NCBI GenBank assembly: GCA_019746225.1
Contig: JAIESE010000013.1
Span: forward strand, 106,063-170,062
Source: Alphaproteobacteria bacterium
GTDB taxonomy: Bacteria; Pseudomonadota; Alphaproteobacteria; Paracaedibacterales; VGCI01
DNA length: 64,000 nucleotides
Reading direction: 5' to 3'
Position 1 is the first letter of the stretch, and each line of letters begins with the position of its first letter. Positions 30,627 to 41,593 of this stretch are shown here, piece after piece. Below the pieces are notes generated by a model that did not search any database, was not told where the DNA came from, and saw only the letters and a program-made list of their open reading frames with translations. Position numbers and translations under genes: made by a program.

Positions 30627-30875
30627 CTAATGGTGATGATGGTGGTGATGCCCCCAGCCGTATCCATAGTTATGATACCCATAATAAGGGTAATAAAGAG
30701 GATAGGGGTCATAGAATTCGTAAGAATAGTAACTCGGATGGTATGGATAGGTATCATAATAATAGAGCGAATGATAACGTGGATATCCTGAGGAAACGTA
30801 AGCTGTTTCACATCCGCCTAAACTTAGGCAAGGGATAGCTAAAAGAAGAAAAGAGGTTGTCAAGCGCCTCTTCAT
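30627..30875 (-). CDS. Tyr/Pro/His-rich mini-lipoprotein ending in seven histidines
   Basis: Lipobox LSLGGC. The mature part is roughly one-third Tyr. C-terminal GHHHHHHH. ATGA overlap with the upstream paralogue. Confidence 0.55.
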   Translation of the reverse strand: MKRRLTTSFLLLAIPCLSLGGCETAYVSSGYPRYHSLYYYDTYPYHPSYYSYEFYDPYPLYYPYYGYHNYGYGWGHHHHHHH

Positions 30876-31078
30876 TCTCTGGCTCTCGCTTCGTAATGAT
30901 AATAGTGATGATCATAAAATTCCGGTGAGTTTTTTGGCATATAAATAACAGCATCGTAATCGGGCGCTATATTGTCCGAATGATGGTAATGAGAGAATTC
31001 GGGCGATTGACATCCTCCCAAACTTACCAATCCCAGCAATGCCAAAAGGACATTTTTCTTATTTTGTAATATAGTCAT
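30872..31078 (-). CDS. Tyr/His-rich mini-lipoprotein (paralogue of 30627..30875)
   Basis: Lipobox VSLGGC. The HYHH and DHHYYHY clusters. Confidence 0.5.
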   Translation of the reverse strand: MTILQNKKNVLLALLGLVSLGGCQSPEFSHYHHSDNIAPDYDAVIYMPKNSPEFYDHHYYHYEARARE

Positions 31079-31355: not shown

Positions 31356-32111
31356 ATGAACAATATTTCTTTTATTTTCATCAATATGTCTTTGAGCTTA
31401 GCTTTGATTTATGGAGCTATTGCTTCAGAGAATTCAACGATGATGCCGTCAACTCCGGCTCAAGATATTGCAGCCCCTAATCTAGGTGATAATACGCAAA
31501 CCTCTGGGGAACCTGGGAATAAAAAATTAGCCAAACAAGGGGATGATTTTCAAACAGTCTTGAATCAATCATTTAGAGCAAGTCGGATCAAGAGTTTAAA
31601 AGAAAAAACAAATCCAATGTTAACAGACATTGAGACAGCCCCAGATTTGCCGCAAGTTAATTTTTTCAATAATTCGAAGAGCTTCTTAACGAACATGAAG
31701 AAAGTAGGTGCAAACCCCTATGTCGCTTTGAGCAAACTTGCCTTTATGGATCAGGATAAATCCAAACAATGGGTTCAAATCGGGAATGGCAAGTATATTT
31801 TACCTCTTGGAACTCAAGTTTGGACAAATGCAGTTACGCCTCCTGAAGTTATACAACATCCCAACGATAAGAATTTGTGGGTGGTGAATACGGAACCTAG
31901 CGGTCCTTACCTACGGTCACCTGGACCCATTCTTTTAAGGCTACCTAAGACTTATAAAGTTTTGCAATTGAAAGAAGATGATCATGAAGGCACTGGACAA
32001 CCCTGCATGGCAACAACAGAAATAAATGACTTTAGCATATACTCTAAAAAGGGAATATGTATGTCTATCCCTAGTCAAAAGTTCTTAAAAGATTTTGATT
32101 TAATTGATTGA
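31356..32111 (+). CDS. Secreted hypothetical protein
   Basis: Signal peptide. AT-rich. No family recognised. Confidence 0.5.
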   Translation: MNNISFIFINMSLSLALIYGAIASENSTMMPSTPAQDIAAPNLGDNTQTSGEPGNKKLAKQGDDFQTVLNQSFRASRIKSLKEKTNPMLTDIETAPDLPQVNFFNNSKSFLTNMKKVGANPYVALSKLAFMDQDKSKQWVQIGNGKYILPLGTQVWTNAVTPPEVIQHPNDKNLWVVNTEPSGPYLRSPGPILLRLPKTYKVLQLKEDDHEGTGQPCMATTEINDFSIYSKKGICMSIPSQKFLKDFDLID

Positions 32112-33473: not shown

Positions 33474-33845
33474 TTAAGGTGTACTTGTTGCTATTTGAAA
33501 GGCCTCGTTTATTTTCAGACAAACTTGATGATGCTGATCGGGCTTAGGGCTCCAGATCAGCTCGACCGAGTTGGGTGTTACTTTCAAAATGCGGAATATA
33601 GAGGAGGTTTCACCCGCTTTGAGGACGCGACCGTTCAGCCATATGGTCCAAGAAGTCGGATTTGTGTAAATAATACCATCCAGCCGGACTTGTGTTGCCC
33701 CTTTGATCTGACCTCTATTTTGAGCTTGCTCAAGGGCTGTTTTTATTGCTTCTTCTTCTGTAGAACTGAGCATGAGGCATAAATCGGAGGCCTGAGCTGA
33801 ACAGATCATTAGACAAAATAGAAGTCTCTTCATCGGTGAATCCAT
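33474..33845 (-). CDS. Small periplasmic protein, last gene of the GspE/F operon (PilP/MshK-like by position only)
   Basis: Signal peptide. 123 aa. Overlaps the upstream gene by 16 nt. No sequence motif recognised. Confidence 0.35.
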   Translation of the reverse strand: MDSPMKRLLFCLMICSAQASDLCLMLSSTEEEAIKTALEQAQNRGQIKGATQVRLDGIIYTNPTSWTIWLNGRVLKAGETSSIFRILKVTPNSVELIWSPKPDQHHQVCLKINEAFQIATSTP

Positions 33846-34396
33846 GTGGCTGTTATCTTTCCATCAAATAGCGCTTGAGGCTTTCCAGAAGCAATTTTTT
33901 CCAACATTTCTTCATTTAAAGAGCTGACTCGATGGATGGTTACGGTGTGAATTTGAAAGAGACCGGGGCCCTTTTCCATCAATTGCTCGAGTAGGGTAAA
34001 CACGTTGGTGTCCTGCAAACAGGGTATGGATATAGAGACCTCTTGGTAAACCAGATTTTTGTTCGTTGATTCTTGATCTTGGGAGGAAACAGATCCAAAG
34101 GTGATGGGGTGAGCAATCTCTTTTTGAAGGTCTTCCTGGGTAATAGGGTGATCAAATTTGCAACTCTCAAATTTCTCAAAATCACTGGCATAAGATTTTA
34201 TTAACATCTCGGCCTCTTGAGAGCGAAGGGATGATTGAGTCAAGGTCAACAACCGATGCTTGAGGAGCTCAATTTGGTGGTGAAGATTGTATGCATGAAT
34301 GCCCAGAGCAAACAGGAGCATGAGAGAAAAACCAAAGATGCCGAGGCTAAAGCCCGGGAGGAATTTTATCTTTATCAGGAGGGATTTTACCATCAA
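33830..34396 (-). CDS. Bitopic membrane protein (GspM/PilO/MshJ-like by architecture)
   Basis: N-terminal TM helix followed by a coiled coil and a periplasmic domain. 188 aa. 4-nt overlap with the upstream gene. Confidence 0.4.
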   Translation of the reverse strand: MMVKSLLIKIKFLPGFSLGIFGFSLMLLFALGIHAYNLHHQIELLKHRLLTLTQSSLRSQEAEMLIKSYASDFEKFESCKFDHPITQEDLQKEIAHPITFGSVSSQDQESTNKNLVYQEVSISIPCLQDTNVFTLLEQLMEKGPGLFQIHTVTIHRVSSLNEEMLEKIASGKPQALFDGKITATWIHR

Positions 34397-35514
34397 CTTT
34401 CCTCCTGATTGGGTACTTGCTTGTCAATTGTCAAAGTACCTCTTAACCCGTCATTTTCTGCTTGTTTCCAGGTTAAAGTGTGGTTCGGTAGTTCGGATCT
34501 GATGGTTAAGAGAAGCGGTTCGATTTGTGTAGTGGGGTGTAGTTCCAGATGAAGTATGAGGCTTTCAGGGTGACGCGCCCACTGAAGATGGGTGGCAACA
34601 GCAGCATCTCTCAAAATCGGCATCAACTGCCGTAAGAGGGGAAGGATATTGGGGCGATCTTTTGTCAAATGATGAAAGGCCGCCAAAGTTTCGACTCTCT
34701 TTTCATCAATATGATTAGAGGCTGGAAGCTGGCTGATTTGGGTAATGAGAGCGCGCTCTAACTCGTTTGTAGATTTTATTTTCAAACTAAAATAGCCGAT
34801 GCCAATCGTGTTCAGAAATGCAATCGCATAGGCGGCGACCTTGATCTGTCGAGGCCAAGAATAGAGGCGTCGTGCATTCTTTAGTTCTGGAATGGAAAGC
34901 ACAATTCCCGCATAAACAAGGTCGTTTGGAATGCGAATTTCAGCATTCATGAAGAGCGGCAAGGGGTCCGGAAAAAGAGAAGACTTCAGGAGGGTTATCG
35001 GCATTTCTTCCTGATACCCAAAACGCTTTAGGTATCGCAAGATCGCAGGCAATTCGTTGGCCAATGGTTGATAGCAAGGACGGCTTAAACGCAATATACC
35101 ATCCTCGCAAATTAAAAGGTGATGATTGTGCCATATCATCGTCCATCCCGGATCGAAGGGCCCATAGGATTTGGTGATCAAATCTGTCCATAAATAGGCA
35201 CCTTTCACAGGTATGGAATGGTCAGAAATTACTTTGAGGATCGATCTCATAAAAGGAGTGGGAAGAATGCCCCCAATAAATGTTTCTCCTTTTGGAAGAT
35301 GCCTTTCTCCTACCCAATATTCAATTGAGTACTCAGCGGAGATGACAAACGGAACAGCTTTCTTGATGGGACAAAAATAATAAAGAGCATCATGGGACTT
35401 AATGACTAAGGTAATTTCACTCTTTGGGGGGAGTCTTTTAAGATAGGCAGGGAGATTCGAGATTTCATGGTCATTTTCTAATATTTGATTTTCTTCCAGT
35501 GTCAGAATGATCAT
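34393..35514 (-). CDS. Bitopic protein with a ~235-aa cytoplasmic domain, one TM helix and a ~115-aa periplasmic domain (GspL/MshI-like by architecture)
   Basis: The ATG at 35514 forms an ATGA overlap with the GspF stop; the track start at 35613 would overlap by 100 nt. TM helix VAAYAIAFLNTIGIGYFSL. Confidence 0.4.
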   Translation of the reverse strand: MIILTLEENQILENDHEISNLPAYLKRLPPKSEITLVIKSHDALYYFCPIKKAVPFVISAEYSIEYWVGERHLPKGETFIGGILPTPFMRSILKVISDHSIPVKGAYLWTDLITKSYGPFDPGWTMIWHNHHLLICEDGILRLSRPCYQPLANELPAILRYLKRFGYQEEMPITLLKSSLFPDPLPLFMNAEIRIPNDLVYAGIVLSIPELKNARRLYSWPRQIKVAAYAIAFLNTIGIGYFSLKIKSTNELERALITQISQLPASNHIDEKRVETLAAFHHLTKDRPNILPLLRQLMPILRDAAVATHLQWARHPESLILHLELHPTTQIEPLLLTIRSELPNHTLTWKQAENDGLRGTLTIDKQVPNQEES

Positions 35515-36719
35515 GTTAGATGCCCGAGTGTTCCATAAAACGGGACGATGACGGCCATTACAATCCACACCATTAACCCGCCCATCAGAAGGATAAGGCA
35601 TGGCTCTAACCACGAAATGACTGTATCAACTTTTCGAAAGGTTTGATGTTCATAGTAGGAGGCTGCTTGAGGAATAAGCTCCTTCAAGCGGCCCGTTTGC
35701 TCACTGAGTTTCAACAATCTCACCATCAATGGCGACAAGAGGGCTTTTTCATTTGAAAAAGTATCCGATAATCCCTCTCCTGCCGTAATTTTGCTTGAAA
35801 GAGTCGTAAGTTGTGCTTTGAGATAGGGATTGTGAATCACTTGAATCGCTTGGGTGAGAGAGGGAAGTAGGTCAACTCCTGCACTAATGAGCACGCCAAA
35901 AACATGCCAAAAATGCGTTAAGGCGATTGGACCATACAAAGGAAGACTTAAAGCAAATCGCGCTACATAATACCGCGTTTTCGGAAACACATACCCTAGA
36001 GCCAGACCCACCCCCATCATTAAAAGAACCAAAGGAATATAGGAGAGAATCGGCGCCAGATAAAGCAACAAACGCGTGGACAATGGGAGTTCTTTGATGC
36101 CCAGAGATCCAAGAAGAGCGGTCATGTTGGGAATGACAAAATCGATCATCACCAAAACCAAAATGATCATCAAACCAAAGAGGATGAGAGGTGATCTTAA
36201 GGCTTTTTGAATCTGATGATTCATTTTTTCAAGGTGTCTCAAATGACCTTCGAGGTGACGAAATTGAGGGGCAAACGTGCCTGTTTGTTCGGCTGCAGCA
36301 ATGAGTTTTTGAAACACCCTGTCAAATACTTTTGGATGTCGCGCTAATGCCTCAGACAACGGAATGCCAACTTGGACATCATCATGAAGGATATGCAGAA
36401 GCGTTTGAAACCCTCTATGAGATGATGATAAAGCCAAGTCATGTAAAGCTGTATCGATGGGAACGCCAGCCGCATCCAATTGAGCCATGTGGTGGCAAAA
36501 ATCGATCAGAAGTTCTCTTGGAATCTTGCGAAAAAGTCCGCCAGAAAACTTGTGGGACAGACGCGGCAAAAATCGCTCCGCACGACTTTCTTCACAACTG
36601 GTTAAGAGCAACCCCTCTTCTTTTAAGGATTTATAAACGCTATCGGTGGAAGCCGCGAAGCGATACCCGGAATGCCGTGTTCCTTTGGAGGATGTTGCTT
36701 TATAGGCATAGAGGGGCAT
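35511..36719 (-). CDS. Type II secretion / type IV pilus platform protein (GspF/PilC family)
   Basis: ~400 aa with two repeated cytoplasmic domains and three TM segments. Motifs typical of the T2SS F family. Confidence 0.88.
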   Translation of the reverse strand: MPLYAYKATSSKGTRHSGYRFAASTDSVYKSLKEEGLLLTSCEESRAERFLPRLSHKFSGGLFRKIPRELLIDFCHHMAQLDAAGVPIDTALHDLALSSSHRGFQTLLHILHDDVQVGIPLSEALARHPKVFDRVFQKLIAAAEQTGTFAPQFRHLEGHLRHLEKMNHQIQKALRSPLILFGLMIILVLVMIDFVIPNMTALLGSLGIKELPLSTRLLLYLAPILSYIPLVLLMMGVGLALGYVFPKTRYYVARFALSLPLYGPIALTHFWHVFGVLISAGVDLLPSLTQAIQVIHNPYLKAQLTTLSSKITAGEGLSDTFSNEKALLSPLMVRLLKLSEQTGRLKELIPQAASYYEHQTFRKVDTVISWLEPCLILLMGGLMVWIVMAVIVPFYGTLGHLT

Positions 36720-38449
36720 TAGGCATAGACTCCAATGACGCGGTCAATCTCTGAAAATGTCGTTTTGCCTTTCAAAACCTTTTTCACACCTCGATCCCAC
36801 AACGTTGGAATGTCCTGATCCTTTCCTTCTTTTCGTAAAATGCATTGTGGGCTTCCCTCTGCAATGAGGGTGGAAAGATCCTCATCAAAGAGGACAAGTT
36901 CTGCGACAGCTTCCCGGCCGCGATACCCTGTGAGTTGGCAAGCAGAACATCCGCTGGATTGGTACACATGTTTGATGGATTCGGGGAGGGCAAATTTGTT
37001 TCTCGTTTCATGGGTGATAATTTTCGTATGTCGACACTCTTCACATAAGCAGCGGATCAGACGTTGAGCCATACCAGCAATTAAATTTCCACTTAGAAGA
37101 GCTGGAGAAATGCCCAAATCTAAGAGGCGTTGAGGAATTGTAAAGCTATCTCGGGCATGTAGGGTTCCCAACACTAAATGTCCCGTCATAGCGGCTCGCA
37201 AGGCCATTTGCGCCGTTTCAGCATCTCGTATTTCGGAAATGAAAATCACATCTGGATCCTGGCGCAAAAGCGAACGCACACCCTCCGCAAATCGAAAAGG
37301 ACCGCCCTCACGAATTTCCGTTTGGTGAATATGGGGCAGATAATATTCGACGGGCTCTTCCAAGGTCATGATGTTTCGCGTCAGGGCGTCCATATGACTG
37401 AGGAGCGCATAAAGGGTGGTTGTCTTTCCAGCGCCGGTTGGACCACTCAAGACAATGAGACCTTGAGGGAGCTGGACAAGTCGTTCCAGAATTTGAATGT
37501 CTTCATCTTCAAAACCCAATTCATCTAAGGATCGAAGAGATTGGGTTTTGTCCAGGATTCGCAACACCAAATTTTCTCCATGAATCGTGGGGTGGCACGA
37601 TAGCCGAAAGTCAATCTCGCGTCCGCCAAGAGTCAAACTAAAGCGTCCATTTTGCGGGCGTCGCGACTCTGCAATATCAAGGCTTCCCATGATCTTCAAT
37701 CGCACAAGAATCCCTGACCACCGATCCTTATGTAAGGTGTGGGCTTGATGGAGTATTCCATCTTGTCGATAGTGGATATGAACACTGTGCGCCGTTGGGG
37801 ACAAATGAATATCAGAAGCATTGAGCCGAACAGCTGCTTGAATAAGCTCATTCACGAGGCGAACAACTTCCCCTTCTTGGGTGTCGACAGTGGGTTGAGG
37901 GTAGTAAATTTCAAGGGCTTGGGTAATTTCATCTTGTGTTGTGTGGTAGGGGATGAGAACGACTTGAGCCCCTAAAAGTTGGTGCAAGCGATCAAGAGCC
38001 ATAAGGTCTTCAGGATCAGACATGGCAATGTGAAACCCGCGGTCATCTTGGGCAAAGAGAATAAGGTTATAACGTTGCGCGAGTTCCATCGGAATTTGCT
38101 GCACAACAGACAGATCAAGGATTTGCTGGGAAAGAAGGATGTGAGGTAATCCTGACAAAGTCGACAAAGCTGTTACGAGTTGCGGTGAGGAAAGGAATCC
38201 CAAAGCCAACAATACTTCGCCTAACCGCTTCTGACGTCGGGACTGCTCTTTTAAGGCAACGGCCAGTTGATCCGGGGTAATCCAATTTTTTGAAACCAAC
38301 CAATCCCCTAACTTAATGCCTTTGGGACGCTGATTCTGAGGTGGTGGGAGGGCAATGGAAGGTTGAAAGGATGGGGTATAATCAGTTTGAAAATTATCAA
38401 ATTGGTCGGTGAAGGTCTCGTTTTTCTTATATAAGGGATACCCCATCAT
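36719..38449 (-). CDS. GspE/PilB/MshE-family secretion ATPase with an N-terminal MshEN-like domain
   Basis: Walker A GPTGAGKTTT, Asp and His boxes, and the tetracysteine CLCEEC...GCSAC. Tandem N-terminal (K/R)LGxxL(V/L)xx..(I/L)xxxxLxxxL motifs. Confidence 0.92.
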   Translation of the reverse strand: MMGYPLYKKNETFTDQFDNFQTDYTPSFQPSIALPPPQNQRPKGIKLGDWLVSKNWITPDQLAVALKEQSRRQKRLGEVLLALGFLSSPQLVTALSTLSGLPHILLSQQILDLSVVQQIPMELAQRYNLILFAQDDRGFHIAMSDPEDLMALDRLHQLLGAQVVLIPYHTTQDEITQALEIYYPQPTVDTQEGEVVRLVNELIQAAVRLNASDIHLSPTAHSVHIHYRQDGILHQAHTLHKDRWSGILVRLKIMGSLDIAESRRPQNGRFSLTLGGREIDFRLSCHPTIHGENLVLRILDKTQSLRSLDELGFEDEDIQILERLVQLPQGLIVLSGPTGAGKTTTLYALLSHMDALTRNIMTLEEPVEYYLPHIHQTEIREGGPFRFAEGVRSLLRQDPDVIFISEIRDAETAQMALRAAMTGHLVLGTLHARDSFTIPQRLLDLGISPALLSGNLIAGMAQRLIRCLCEECRHTKIITHETRNKFALPESIKHVYQSSGCSACQLTGYRGREAVAELVLFDEDLSTLIAEGSPQCILRKEGKDQDIPTLWDRGVKKVLKGKTTFSEIDRVIGVYA

Positions 38450-39997: not shown

Positions 39998-41593
39998 TTA
40001 CTTAATGAGTGGCTTCATGATTTTTTCAAACCAGTTATATAAATGTAGATTTAACGTCAATGCACGTCTGCCATGGTAAACCCGGGTATGATCCGTGTCG
40101 GTTTCTGTTCCAAAGATAAAGGATTGGATATCCCCACCCATAATGTCACTCAACGTTTCTTGCTTGAAAATTTCAGCGAGTGTAACTTTTTCGAAATTGT
40201 CCCCCACACACTCAACAAATTCCATATTTTGGAGAAGGTCATCGAATGTTAACTCACGATATGAGTCTCTTAAATACGTTGTTTGAAGGAGCTGTTCTGC
40301 TTTTATGCTTCCTACAAGCTCTAAAAGCTGAGCATCTGAATTATACCCAATAAAGTCAGAGAATTTTACATCTTTATAAATGTCACATACCCTCTTGTCA
40401 GCATAAATATCCGCTATTGAAATGGCTTCATCGCTATGGAAACGTTCTGTATAGCAAAAAGGATCACTTTGTTTGGGATCTGATTTCTCTTCTATTTTTT
40501 TAAAAAATAGCTGCGTTTTTGTCATTGTTGAAATGGGCATTTGTGAACCGACAACGAAGAGACCCGTTGTTAGTGAATGCTTCCATCTTTCCATTAAAAT
40601 GTGAAAGGAGTTAGCTGGATTGAAAGACTCAGCGAGCAAGGGGGTAATCTGATAAATATGATTTTCATGAAGCAAGCGAAAACCTGCTGCTATCGCTAGA
40701 GGTCGTGATTCAGCAGGTACAACGCCACTATTAACAACGGCTAATAGTCGTCCAGCTATATCTGCAATTATATTTGCAATTTTCATATAGTTTTGAGGTG
40801 AGCCGCCTTCAGTATTAGGCATGAGTTGGTCATTCATATGGGCTTGATCATGAATAAATAAAAGAATGGGAAGGTCAAATAAATACCCATGAGCCTTTGC
40901 AAAATCTTTATTGAGCCCATAAAGAGCTTTCTTTTGCCACGTTGCATAAAGGTAATCCTCTTCAGTGTAGATTGCATTTTCACCGGTTAAAATAACGGGC
41001 ATAAAATGCTCGCAAGTTAGTTCATAACCAAAGCTTGTTCTTTCTTCAAAAGGTGCGTCTAAGCCTTTATCTATATGGTGTGTGCCCTTTTTAGCATAGA
41101 AGAGTTTATGATTCGTAACCTCATTATAAATTCCATCATTCGTCGTATTTTTAGGGAGAGAATAACTAGGATCAAAAATTTCTGGTGATAATAACAAGCT
41201 TGCAGCCTCAGCTACTTTTAACATATCAACCCCAGTTAATTCTTGTTTTGTTGTTGCCTCATGCAATCTGCAGGCAGCACCAAACATGGTATTGTAGGTA
41301 AGATCTGAAGGGGTAATATCTTCCTTGCCTGTCTGAGGTAAGTCCATCTTTACAAGCCCCGTCTTTTGAAATATTTCAGCGTAGGGTAGATTCTTGAATC
41401 GAGCATTATTTTCATCCAAAACAGTTTTTACTGTAAAGGCTATAACCTCTTTAACATTAGAGGGAAATGTTTGAGGGGTGTATCGATCACTTATTGGTCT
41501 TTGTCCGTCATGCTCCATTGCTTTTGTGCAGTCAGCACCCACAAGAAGCGTTAAAAGTACGGGTATTGCGTAATGTAATTTGAATTTAAACAT
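39998..41593 (-). CDS. Large secreted hypothetical protein (ORFan)
   Basis: Signal peptide MFKFKLHYAIPVLLTLLVGADC. 531 aa, AT-rich, no family recognised. Confidence 0.55.
   Translation of the reverse strand: MFKFKLHYAIPVLLTLLVGADCTKAMEHDGQRPISDRYTPQTFPSNVKEVIAFTVKTVLDENNARFKNLPYAEIFQKTGLVKMDLPQTGKEDITPSDLTYNTMFGAACRLHEATTKQELTGVDMLKVAEAASLLLSPEIFDPSYSLPKNTTNDGIYNEVTNHKLFYAKKGTHHIDKGLDAPFEERTSFGYELTCEHFMPVILTGENAIYTEEDYLYATWQKKALYGLNKDFAKAHGYLFDLPILLFIHDQAHMNDQLMPNTEGGSPQNYMKIANIIADIAGRLLAVVNSGVVPAESRPLAIAAGFRLLHENHIYQITPLLAESFNPANSFHILMERWKHSLTTGLFVVGSQMPISTMTKTQLFFKKIEEKSDPKQSDPFCYTERFHSDEAISIADIYADKRVCDIYKDVKFSDFIGYNSDAQLLELVGSIKAEQLLQTTYLRDSYRELTFDDLLQNMEFVECVGDNFEKVTLAEIFKQETLSDIMGGDIQSFIFGTETDTDHTRVYHGRRALTLNLHLYNWFEKIMKPLIK

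Follow-up and report, generated by a model that had tools for sequence, protein, structure and literature searches.

The 64,000-nucleotide window analyzed here, i.e. the whole stretch C76:106063-170062 of a 2.38 Mb genome in 76 contigs from the alphaproteobacterial order Paracaedibacterales, contains an operon of five genes (E, F, and genes 3, 4, and 5). This operon quite probably encodes the motor and the whole inner-membrane platform of a type IV filament (TFF) machine that is minimal and dispersed yet complete. The machine would be a member of the superfamily that includes type II secretion systems (T2SS), mannose-sensitive hemagglutinin (MSH) pili, and other type IV pili (T4P), and would belong to the conserved core of the order. 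Members of the order are protist endosymbionts, namely Candidatus (Ca.) Finniella, Paracaedibacteraceae, and relatives, and homologs and related loci identify the present bacterium as similar to Ca. Finniella or Paracaedibacter. According to the list of open reading frames (ORFs) of the window, the five ORFs overlap and run in the same direction on the minus strand, from 38449 to 33474. The features of the operon, with lengths in amino acids (aa), are as follows.

36719..38449, minus strand: E, hexameric assembly ATPase of the GspE/PilB/MshE family, 576 aa
38159..38314, minus strand: predicted MshEN cyclic di-GMP (c-di-GMP)-binding motif region of E, residues 46-97 (NF053729)
35511..36719, minus strand: F, polytopic platform protein of the GspF/PilC type, 402 aa
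34393..35514, minus strand: gene 3, predicted GspL-like bitopic assembly protein, 373 aa from the ATG at 35514
33830..34396, minus strand: gene 4, putative GspM/PilO-class (T2SSM_b-like) bitopic protein, 188 aa
33474..33845, minus strand: gene 5, probable exported connector of the PilP/GspC-HR/MshK class, 123 aa

In Pfam, E matched PF00437 at 1e-110 and the MshEN family PF05157 at 3.5e-15, and in NCBIfam it matched NF053729, an MshE-related model of the c-di-GMP motif, with 62.5 bits (2.3e-17), above the cut-off of 38. All motifs of the ATPase were intact, including the Walker A motif at residue 336, the Asp box at 364, the Walker B motif at 398, the His box at 423, and CxxC motifs at 469 and 501. 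Typing of the system by E is ambiguous on sequence scores, as NCBIfam favors GspE (TIGR02533, 453 bits) over PilB (TIGR02538, 426 bits), each under its equivalog cut-off, while the best sequence matches in the PDB favor PilF (366 bits) and PilB (357 bits) over GspE (304 bits). The platform protein F matched PF00482 in two stretches (5.3e-41) and contains three hydrophobic segments; its closest family is GspF (TIGR02120, 211 bits over the full length, under cut-off). An intact GG(D/E)EF motif was present in at least three proteins of the genome (C40:14682, C66:44864, and C73:92204), which makes c-di-GMP signaling and the control of E by this route plausible.

The gene 3 protein had no sequence match in Pfam, NCBIfam, or the PDB, the PF05134 model included. 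When 1.84 billion representative proteins were searched with its profile, only 33 relatives were recovered, all internal to the clade and none forming a bridge to a named family. Since hhalign comparison with L-type proteins encoded upstream of T2SSM_b genes reached only 10-24%, the assignment of gene 3 rests on structure. Canonical GspL was encoded in four of 301 sampled alphaproteobacterial genomes and was therefore unfit as a reference set. In an AlphaFold2 model from 27 sequences (pLDDT 81.5), residues 1-215 form an alpha/beta domain, which is followed by a helix at 222-261 and a small domain of alpha-beta-beta repeats. The protein was accordingly divided into a truncated actin-like domain in the cytoplasm (approximately 1-215), a long helix (222-261) in which the membrane span lies, and a ferredoxin-like domain in the periplasm (approximately 290-365). 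In a Foldseek search of the PDB the cytoplasmic domain matched 4pht_Y at 6.7e-8, followed by 1yf5, 1w97, and 5tkw, with a probability of 1.00, and the cytoplasmic domains of GspL, EpsL, and PulL outranked PilM and FtsA. The C-terminal part separately matched the periplasmic domains of PulL, EpsL, and XcpY (5hl8, 2w7v, 6ghu, and 8ab1_E) with TM-scores on the target of 0.57-0.65. Because the modeled cytoplasmic and periplasmic domains each match solved GspL structures, there is a strong case that gene 3 encodes a GspL-type protein.

Gene 4 is predicted to encode a protein that is anchored in the membrane at its N-terminus (approximately residues 10-38) and has a helical stalk and an alpha/beta domain at the C-terminus; a hydrophobic segment was detected, and no consistent Pfam match was obtained among 35 family members. 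As a reference, 24 T2SSM_b (PF10741) proteins of other Pseudomonadota were used together with their neighbor genes. The order-wide gene 4 alignment matched these proteins in hhalign at 84.6% (E 6.8e-6) over 150 columns, which extend from the membrane helix through the C-terminal domain, compared with 0.1% for both cross-controls. The reference loci also encode an L-type protein (a PilN domain and a weak T2SSL match) upstream and an HR/HofP-type protein downstream, so that their L-M-P gene order is the same as that of genes 3-4-5. Profile similarity makes a fair case for gene 4 as a predicted GspM subtype-b-like protein. Gene 4 also resembled the membrane-plus-periplasmic part of gene 3 weakly (57% in hhalign), and this value was obtained after removal of P0035, a 527-aa metagenomic homolog of gene 3. 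An apparent 99.6% match of gene 4 to the full gene 3 alignment was rejected as an artefact, because P0035 had been included in that alignment. Residues 19-388 of P0035 correspond to gene 3 and residues 385-527 to positions 49-201 of gene 4, representing either a natural fusion of genes 3 and 4 (L-M) or an assembly frameshift. A 322-aa ORF of a 79%-complete genome (L034, G043:C41:88-1056) matched both the gene 3 and gene 5 profiles and may be a fusion or a collapsed module.

The gene 5 product begins with a signal peptide (approximately residues 1-20), followed by a helix at 28-44 and a beta-sandwich domain at 52-117. The AlphaFold2 model from 38 sequences had a pLDDT of 81.8, which exceeded 90 over the beta domain. 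Among 350,542 PDB chains the top two Foldseek matches were both PilP, from P. aeruginosa (2lc4, probability 0.87) and from N. meningitidis (2ivw, 0.51), with E-values of 0.28 and 0.35 that are each non-significant alone. Comparison with HR-type proteins encoded after T2SSM_b genes gave 50-58% in hhalign (E approximately 1e-4; controls 0.1%). Furthermore, PF16537 (T2SSB) was weakly matched by nine of 38 gene 5 family members (best 7.6e-4); these matches are taken as a hint only, as a search with PF16537 at a loose threshold across the genomes of the order returned noise, with only two matches on gene 5 loci. Since three weak and independent lines of evidence (fold, profile alignment, and PF16537) agree, gene 5 probably belongs to the PilP/GspC-HR/MshK class.

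The identity of these five proteins had been anticipated by an earlier sequence-only reading of the window, which named a PilB/GspE/MshE ATPase and a PilC/GspF platform protein and, by architecture, likened genes 3, 4, and 5 to GspL/MshI, GspM/MshJ/PilO, and PilP/MshK, respectively. The first two are now anchored in Pfam families, and the likenesses are backed strongly for gene 3, fairly for gene 4, and weakly but convergently for gene 5. Its observation that genes 3 to 5 contain no recognizable sequence motifs was likewise confirmed: Pfam and NCBIfam scans of the three proteins and their distant orthologs yielded nothing at E<=0.1 apart from noise, and profile hidden Markov models (HMMs) of the three families had no match among PDB sequences.

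The genome as a whole encodes two secretins, two A24 peptidases, and two T2SSE-family ATPases, with one of each belonging to a Tad (Flp pilus) system. The candidate partners of the operon lie on other contigs.

C55:5771-7453: secretin, 560 aa, PF00263 at 8e-31, with a lipobox, in a housekeeping context outside the Tad locus
C62:21868-22482: predicted major prepilin, 204 aa, P-GFSLIE with cleavage after G, PF07963/TIGR02532 N_methyl motif
C55:28846-29601: predicted second prepilin, 251 aa, P-GFSLIE with cleavage after G, PF07963/TIGR02532 N_methyl motif
C67:71239-71685: short A24 peptidase, 148 aa, PF01478

The best family of the secretin on C55 was MshL (TIGR02519, 4e-61, 206.5 bits over the full model length, cut-off 250.2), with lower scores for GspD (TIGR02517, 122 bits, cut-off 351) and PilQ (68 bits, cut-off 284) and a weak match to HofQ. 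The lipobox was present in seven of seven orthologs with the N-terminus captured. The major pilin is GspG-like in its N-terminal half. Matches to GspG were weak and confined to the N-terminus (31 and 24.5 bits; cut-off 89). In all 17 pilin orthologs examined the N-terminal half resembles GspG and a pair of Cys residues is conserved at the C-terminus. The 148-aa peptidase did not match PF06750, which models the domain found N-terminally in bifunctional prepilin peptidases. A motif scan of the genome found no further GFxxxE proteins beyond the two prepilins and no minor-pilin set, and a PilT-like ATPase was not found in the genome, where E and CpaF of the Tad system are the sole T2SSE-family ATPases. 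Taken on sequence, the features of the TFF superfamily are all present, i.e. an intact ATPase, a platform, predicted prepilins with an A24 peptidase, and a secretin.

The second prepilin gene is located directly downstream, on the same strand, of a gene for a 1726-aa repeat-rich RTX-like protein (C55:29692-34872) with GDxxxN(I/V)LxGGxGND-type motifs. Glycine before the prepilin cleavage site is near-universal; at loci L087-L102 the residue before the predicted site is Ala in many families (KAFSLIE, AAFSLVE) and otherwise Gly. The Tad system is itself split between C64:4534-9605, with a CpaA-like peptidase, CpaB, a CpaC secretin with a long Thr/Pro-rich insert, CpaD, and CpaE, and C75:129800-137222, with Flp-like ORFs, CpaF, TadB, TadC, two TadE-like proteins, and a 763-aa TadG-like protein running off the contig end.

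The distribution of the machine was examined across the 62 genomes of the order as defined by GTDB. Matches to the secretin were present in all 62 genomes (identity mostly 41-77%), to E in 61 (mostly 35-74%), to the major pilin in 60 (35-76%), and to F in 58 (E<=1e-8). The machine is retained even in the 1.1-1.3 Mb genomes of obligate intracellular bacteria, and no stop codons were found inside the five ORFs, either here or in orthologs. The full five-gene operon is kept in four Ca. Finniella loci, and because their flanks differ the unit does not represent a chance arrangement. The initial gene 3 profile detected 24 of the 62 genomes. An F-L-M-P module is present in seven of ten families (f1-f5, f9, and f10), in which F is followed by ORFs of 300-630 aa, 155-286 aa (typically 170-230), and 110-207 aa, and iterated profiles unite these positional equivalents with the families of genes 3, 4, and 5. 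In family f7 (L042 and L043) a thioredoxin gene follows F and the L-M-P trio is found at another site (versus L032), indicating that the module has been broken up differently across lineages. No pilin, peptidase, or secretin was found beside the module in approximately 35 related loci examined.

A mechanism can be proposed in which the identity of the parts comes from this analysis and the steps are drawn from established T2SS and T4P biology. The MshEN motif of the hexameric ATPase would bind c-di-GMP, and E would dock on the actin-like cytoplasmic domain of the gene 3 protein and on F. Upon ATP hydrolysis, F would lift processed prepilins from the inner membrane into a helical filament, the 204-aa major and 251-aa second prepilins presumably having been cut by the short A24 peptidase. 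Around F, the products of genes 3 and 4 may pair via their periplasmic ferredoxin-like domains, while the exported gene 5 protein would use its PilP/HR-type beta domain to join the platform to the MshL-like lipoprotein secretin.

With regard to output, the evidence leans slightly towards T2SS-like secretion, in which a short filament in the periplasm would drive Sec-exported proteins out through the secretin, over an adhesive pilus on the surface. The pointers towards secretion are the fused GspL-type L protein, GspE and GspF as best NCBIfam models, the lack of a PilT-type ATPase, the presence of only two pilins, and a pilin that is GspG-like in its N-terminal half and unusually conserved (35-76% identity).

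It is possible, if not the preferred reading, that the same machine instead builds a surface MSH-like type IV pilus, gated by c-di-GMP, for attachment to or entry into the protist host. The observations that suggest such a pilus are those that weigh against secretion: a secretin closest to MshL, an ATPase with MshE-type c-di-GMP motifs and PDB scores that place PilF and PilB above GspE, a long pilin (204 aa) with the conserved C-terminal Cys pair typical of true pilins, and a gene 5 protein that is small and exported like PilP and MshK and has neither the membrane anchor nor the PDZ domain of GspC. Weighing against a pilus of this kind are the lack of a retraction ATPase and of a minor-pilin or tip-adhesin set, a pilin far more conserved than is usual for surface pilins, and the retention of the machine in obligate intracellular genomes of 1.1-1.3 Mb. 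The "incomplete type IV pili" of Holosporales in the literature (PMC9992710) are in agreement with a pilus, whereas MSH is a single-locus system (PMC6668835) and the genes here are dispersed.

Several points also weigh against a complete machine of either kind. The evidence for genes 4 and 5 is sub-threshold (hhalign 85% and 50-58%; Foldseek E 0.28), every component scores under its NCBIfam equivalog cut-off, and the short peptidase was matched in only 32 of 62 genomes, using a single divergent query. T2SS and type IVa pili (T4aP) normally prime assembly with a minor-pilin set, and none was found here. That the dispersed genes form one machine is suggested by co-conservation and by the exclusion of other partner systems.

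The possibility that the E-F-L-M-P subcomplex has been repurposed without filament or secretin, e.g. to serve as a scaffold in the envelope or as a membrane complex that responds to c-di-GMP, was raised in the sequence-only reading as an alternative to partner genes encoded elsewhere. Such repurposing would fit the approximately 35 related loci without pilin, peptidase, or secretin beside the operon, as well as accessory proteins that are fast-evolving and outside all family models, but it is improbable and was rejected, given that the secretin, major pilin, E, and F are each present in 58-62 of 62 genomes, that the catalytic motifs are intact, and that no other system of the genome could use the MshL-like secretin or the GFSLIE pilins, since Tad has its own parts. 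With a secretin, two prepilins, and a second A24 peptidase dispersed in the genome, the expectation that fiber subunits and outer-membrane channel are encoded elsewhere was borne out and repurposing need not be invoked; the operon is an orphan in position and not in function.

A DNA-uptake (competence) pilus is less probable still. Competence pili of diderm bacteria typically combine a minimal set of pilins with scattered genes, the secretin is weakly HofQ-like, and one reference P protein weakly matches HofP, yet the best secretin family is MshL and neither PilQ nor HofQ, no retraction ATPase was found, and foreign DNA is scarcely accessible to obligate intracellular bacteria. A reading of the operon as a remnant in decay, or as a paralog made redundant by a canonical locus elsewhere, as might be supposed from a reduced genome in which all models score under equivalog cut-offs and as the sequence-only reading had considered, is very improbable and was rejected, as the five ORFs are free of stop codons here and in orthologs, the ATPase motifs are all intact, the second T2SSE-family ATPase is CpaF of Tad, the sole other filament system, and the system is conserved across the order.

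The preferred reading, a complete and dispersed TFF machine, was compared with known systems. Like the T2SS platform (Vibrio Eps, Klebsiella Pul), the operon encodes an ATPase, a polytopic platform protein, a putative M-class bitopic partner, a modeled L protein with truncated actin-like and ferredoxin-like domains (4pht, 1yf5, 5tkw, and 5hl8), and an HR/PilP-type beta domain for secretin docking, and the likeness extends to the GspG-like N-terminal half of the pilin and to the lack of a retraction ATPase. Unlike the T2SS with its one gspC-O operon, the genes are dispersed, the connector is small, exported, and limited to one beta domain without GspC anchor or PDZ domain, the secretin is MshL-like with a lipobox rather than GspD (122 bits; cut-off 351), the pilins number only two and no GspH-K set is present, the ATPase carries the c-di-GMP MshEN motif, the peptidase is short, and the L, M, and connector proteins are undetectable by sequence models.

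MshI, MshJ, and MshK have the same sizes, topologies, and gene order as the trio of genes 3 to 5. The MSHA pilus of Vibrio cholerae further shares the MshEN c-di-GMP motif in the ATPase, MshL as best secretin family (206 bits, under the cut-off of 250), and the lack of a dedicated bifunctional PilD (PMC6668835). In contrast to this multi-locus alphaproteobacterial system, MSH loci are almost always single-locus and have been described only from Gamma- and Epsilonproteobacteria and Chrysiogenetes (PMC6668835, Denise et al. 2019), and MshM is a mandatory component in the published MSH model (PMC6668835). The overall logic is also that of T4aP with PilM-PilN-PilO-PilP, PilB, PilC, and PilQ: PilP is the best fold match of gene 5, PilM a secondary fold match of gene 3, and PilB and PilF the best PDB matches of E. 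In contrast to T4aP, PilM and PilN equivalents are fused here in the manner of GspL, PilT and PilU are lacking, the secretin does not resemble PilQ (68 bits; cut-off 284), a lipobox is absent from gene 5, and no minor pilin or PilY1 set is present. The chlamydial T2SS similarly belongs to an obligate intracellular lineage with a pared-down set of ATPase, platform, secretin, and pseudopilin, and was classed as a "generic" TFF because its GspL, GspM, and minor pilins were unrecognizable (PMC6668835); it occurs in another phylum, and the proposed L, M, and P equivalents described here are identifiable by structure and profile comparison. The present system lacks GspC, GspD, and GspH-K, which help to define the canonical T2SS, as well as the single-locus organization of MSH and the separate PilM and PilN, the PilT, and the PilQ that characterize T4aP.

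The junctions of the operon were read directly from the DNA letters. E and F overlap by 1 nucleotide (nt) in TAATG, and F and gene 3 by 4 nt in ATGA. The ATG at 35514 is supported as the start of gene 3, since orthologs are 373-374 aa in length; at locus L009 the equivalent ATG is the first start codon of the ORF. The junction of genes 3 and 4 reads TTGATG, with AGGAGG upstream; the overlap is 4 nt if gene 4 starts at the TTG and 1 nt if it starts at the ATG, the start picked by gene callers (187 aa). Genes 4 and 5 overlap by 16 nt from the ATG at 33845, or by 4 nt (ATGA) from the ATG at 33833, again the choice of gene callers (119 aa); the upstream start is in use in at least one ortholog, which has no Met at the second site. 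The overlaps of 1, 4, 4, and 16 nt first proposed with the ATG at 35514 are consistent with these junctions when the TTG is taken for gene 4 and the ATG at 33845 for gene 5. Also as first described, the operon is followed by an antiporter gene, 120 nt after gene 5 (K+/H+ antiporter, NF003716, 5e-138), and preceded by a divergent phosphoesterase gene (Metallophos family), and no secretin, A24 peptidase, or GFxxxE prepilin is nearby, a statement which now extends to the whole 185-kb contig C76. No intrinsic terminator was found after gene 5, and the promoter and terminator scan gave matches at chance frequency.

Other ORFs of the window may be mentioned. Two adjacent small ORFs of 82 and 68 aa on the minus strand (30627-31078) are lipoprotein-like with an LGGC lipobox and extremely Tyr/His-rich, with seven His at the end of one. 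The ORFs at 39998-41593 (minus strand, 531 aa) and 31356-32111 (plus strand, 251 aa) have signal-peptide-like N-termini and no Pfam match, and are possible exported effector-type proteins near the operon.

A 2023 comparative paper stated that most Holosporales have "incomplete Type IV pili" (PMC9992710), and a 2025 review of Holosporales named only a type VI system and flagella as host-interaction machines, with pili and type II secretion unmentioned (PMC11909080). The system published as "incomplete" now appears complete, with the "missing" platform proteins constituting three fast-evolving, clade-restricted families beyond public models, in parallel with the chlamydial T2SS, where GspL and GspM were likewise unrecognized. 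Alignments from this analysis could seed HMMs that turn such "incomplete" calls complete. Retention in 58-62 of 62 genomes of reduced obligate symbionts implies an important function, and the machine is a candidate outer-membrane export route for Sec-dependent effector-like proteins. Tentatively, it may represent a new minimal class of T2SS, dispersed and c-di-GMP-gated, with two pilins, an L protein of the fused GspL type, a connector of the PilP type, and a secretin that is a lipoprotein. It would then serve as the general route for the Sec-signal-bearing, eukaryote-like effectors (leucine-rich repeat, Sel1, F-box, and similar) of Holosporales-type endosymbionts across the outer membrane into the host. 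If true, such a class would explain why its core parts are kept in nearly every genome of the order.

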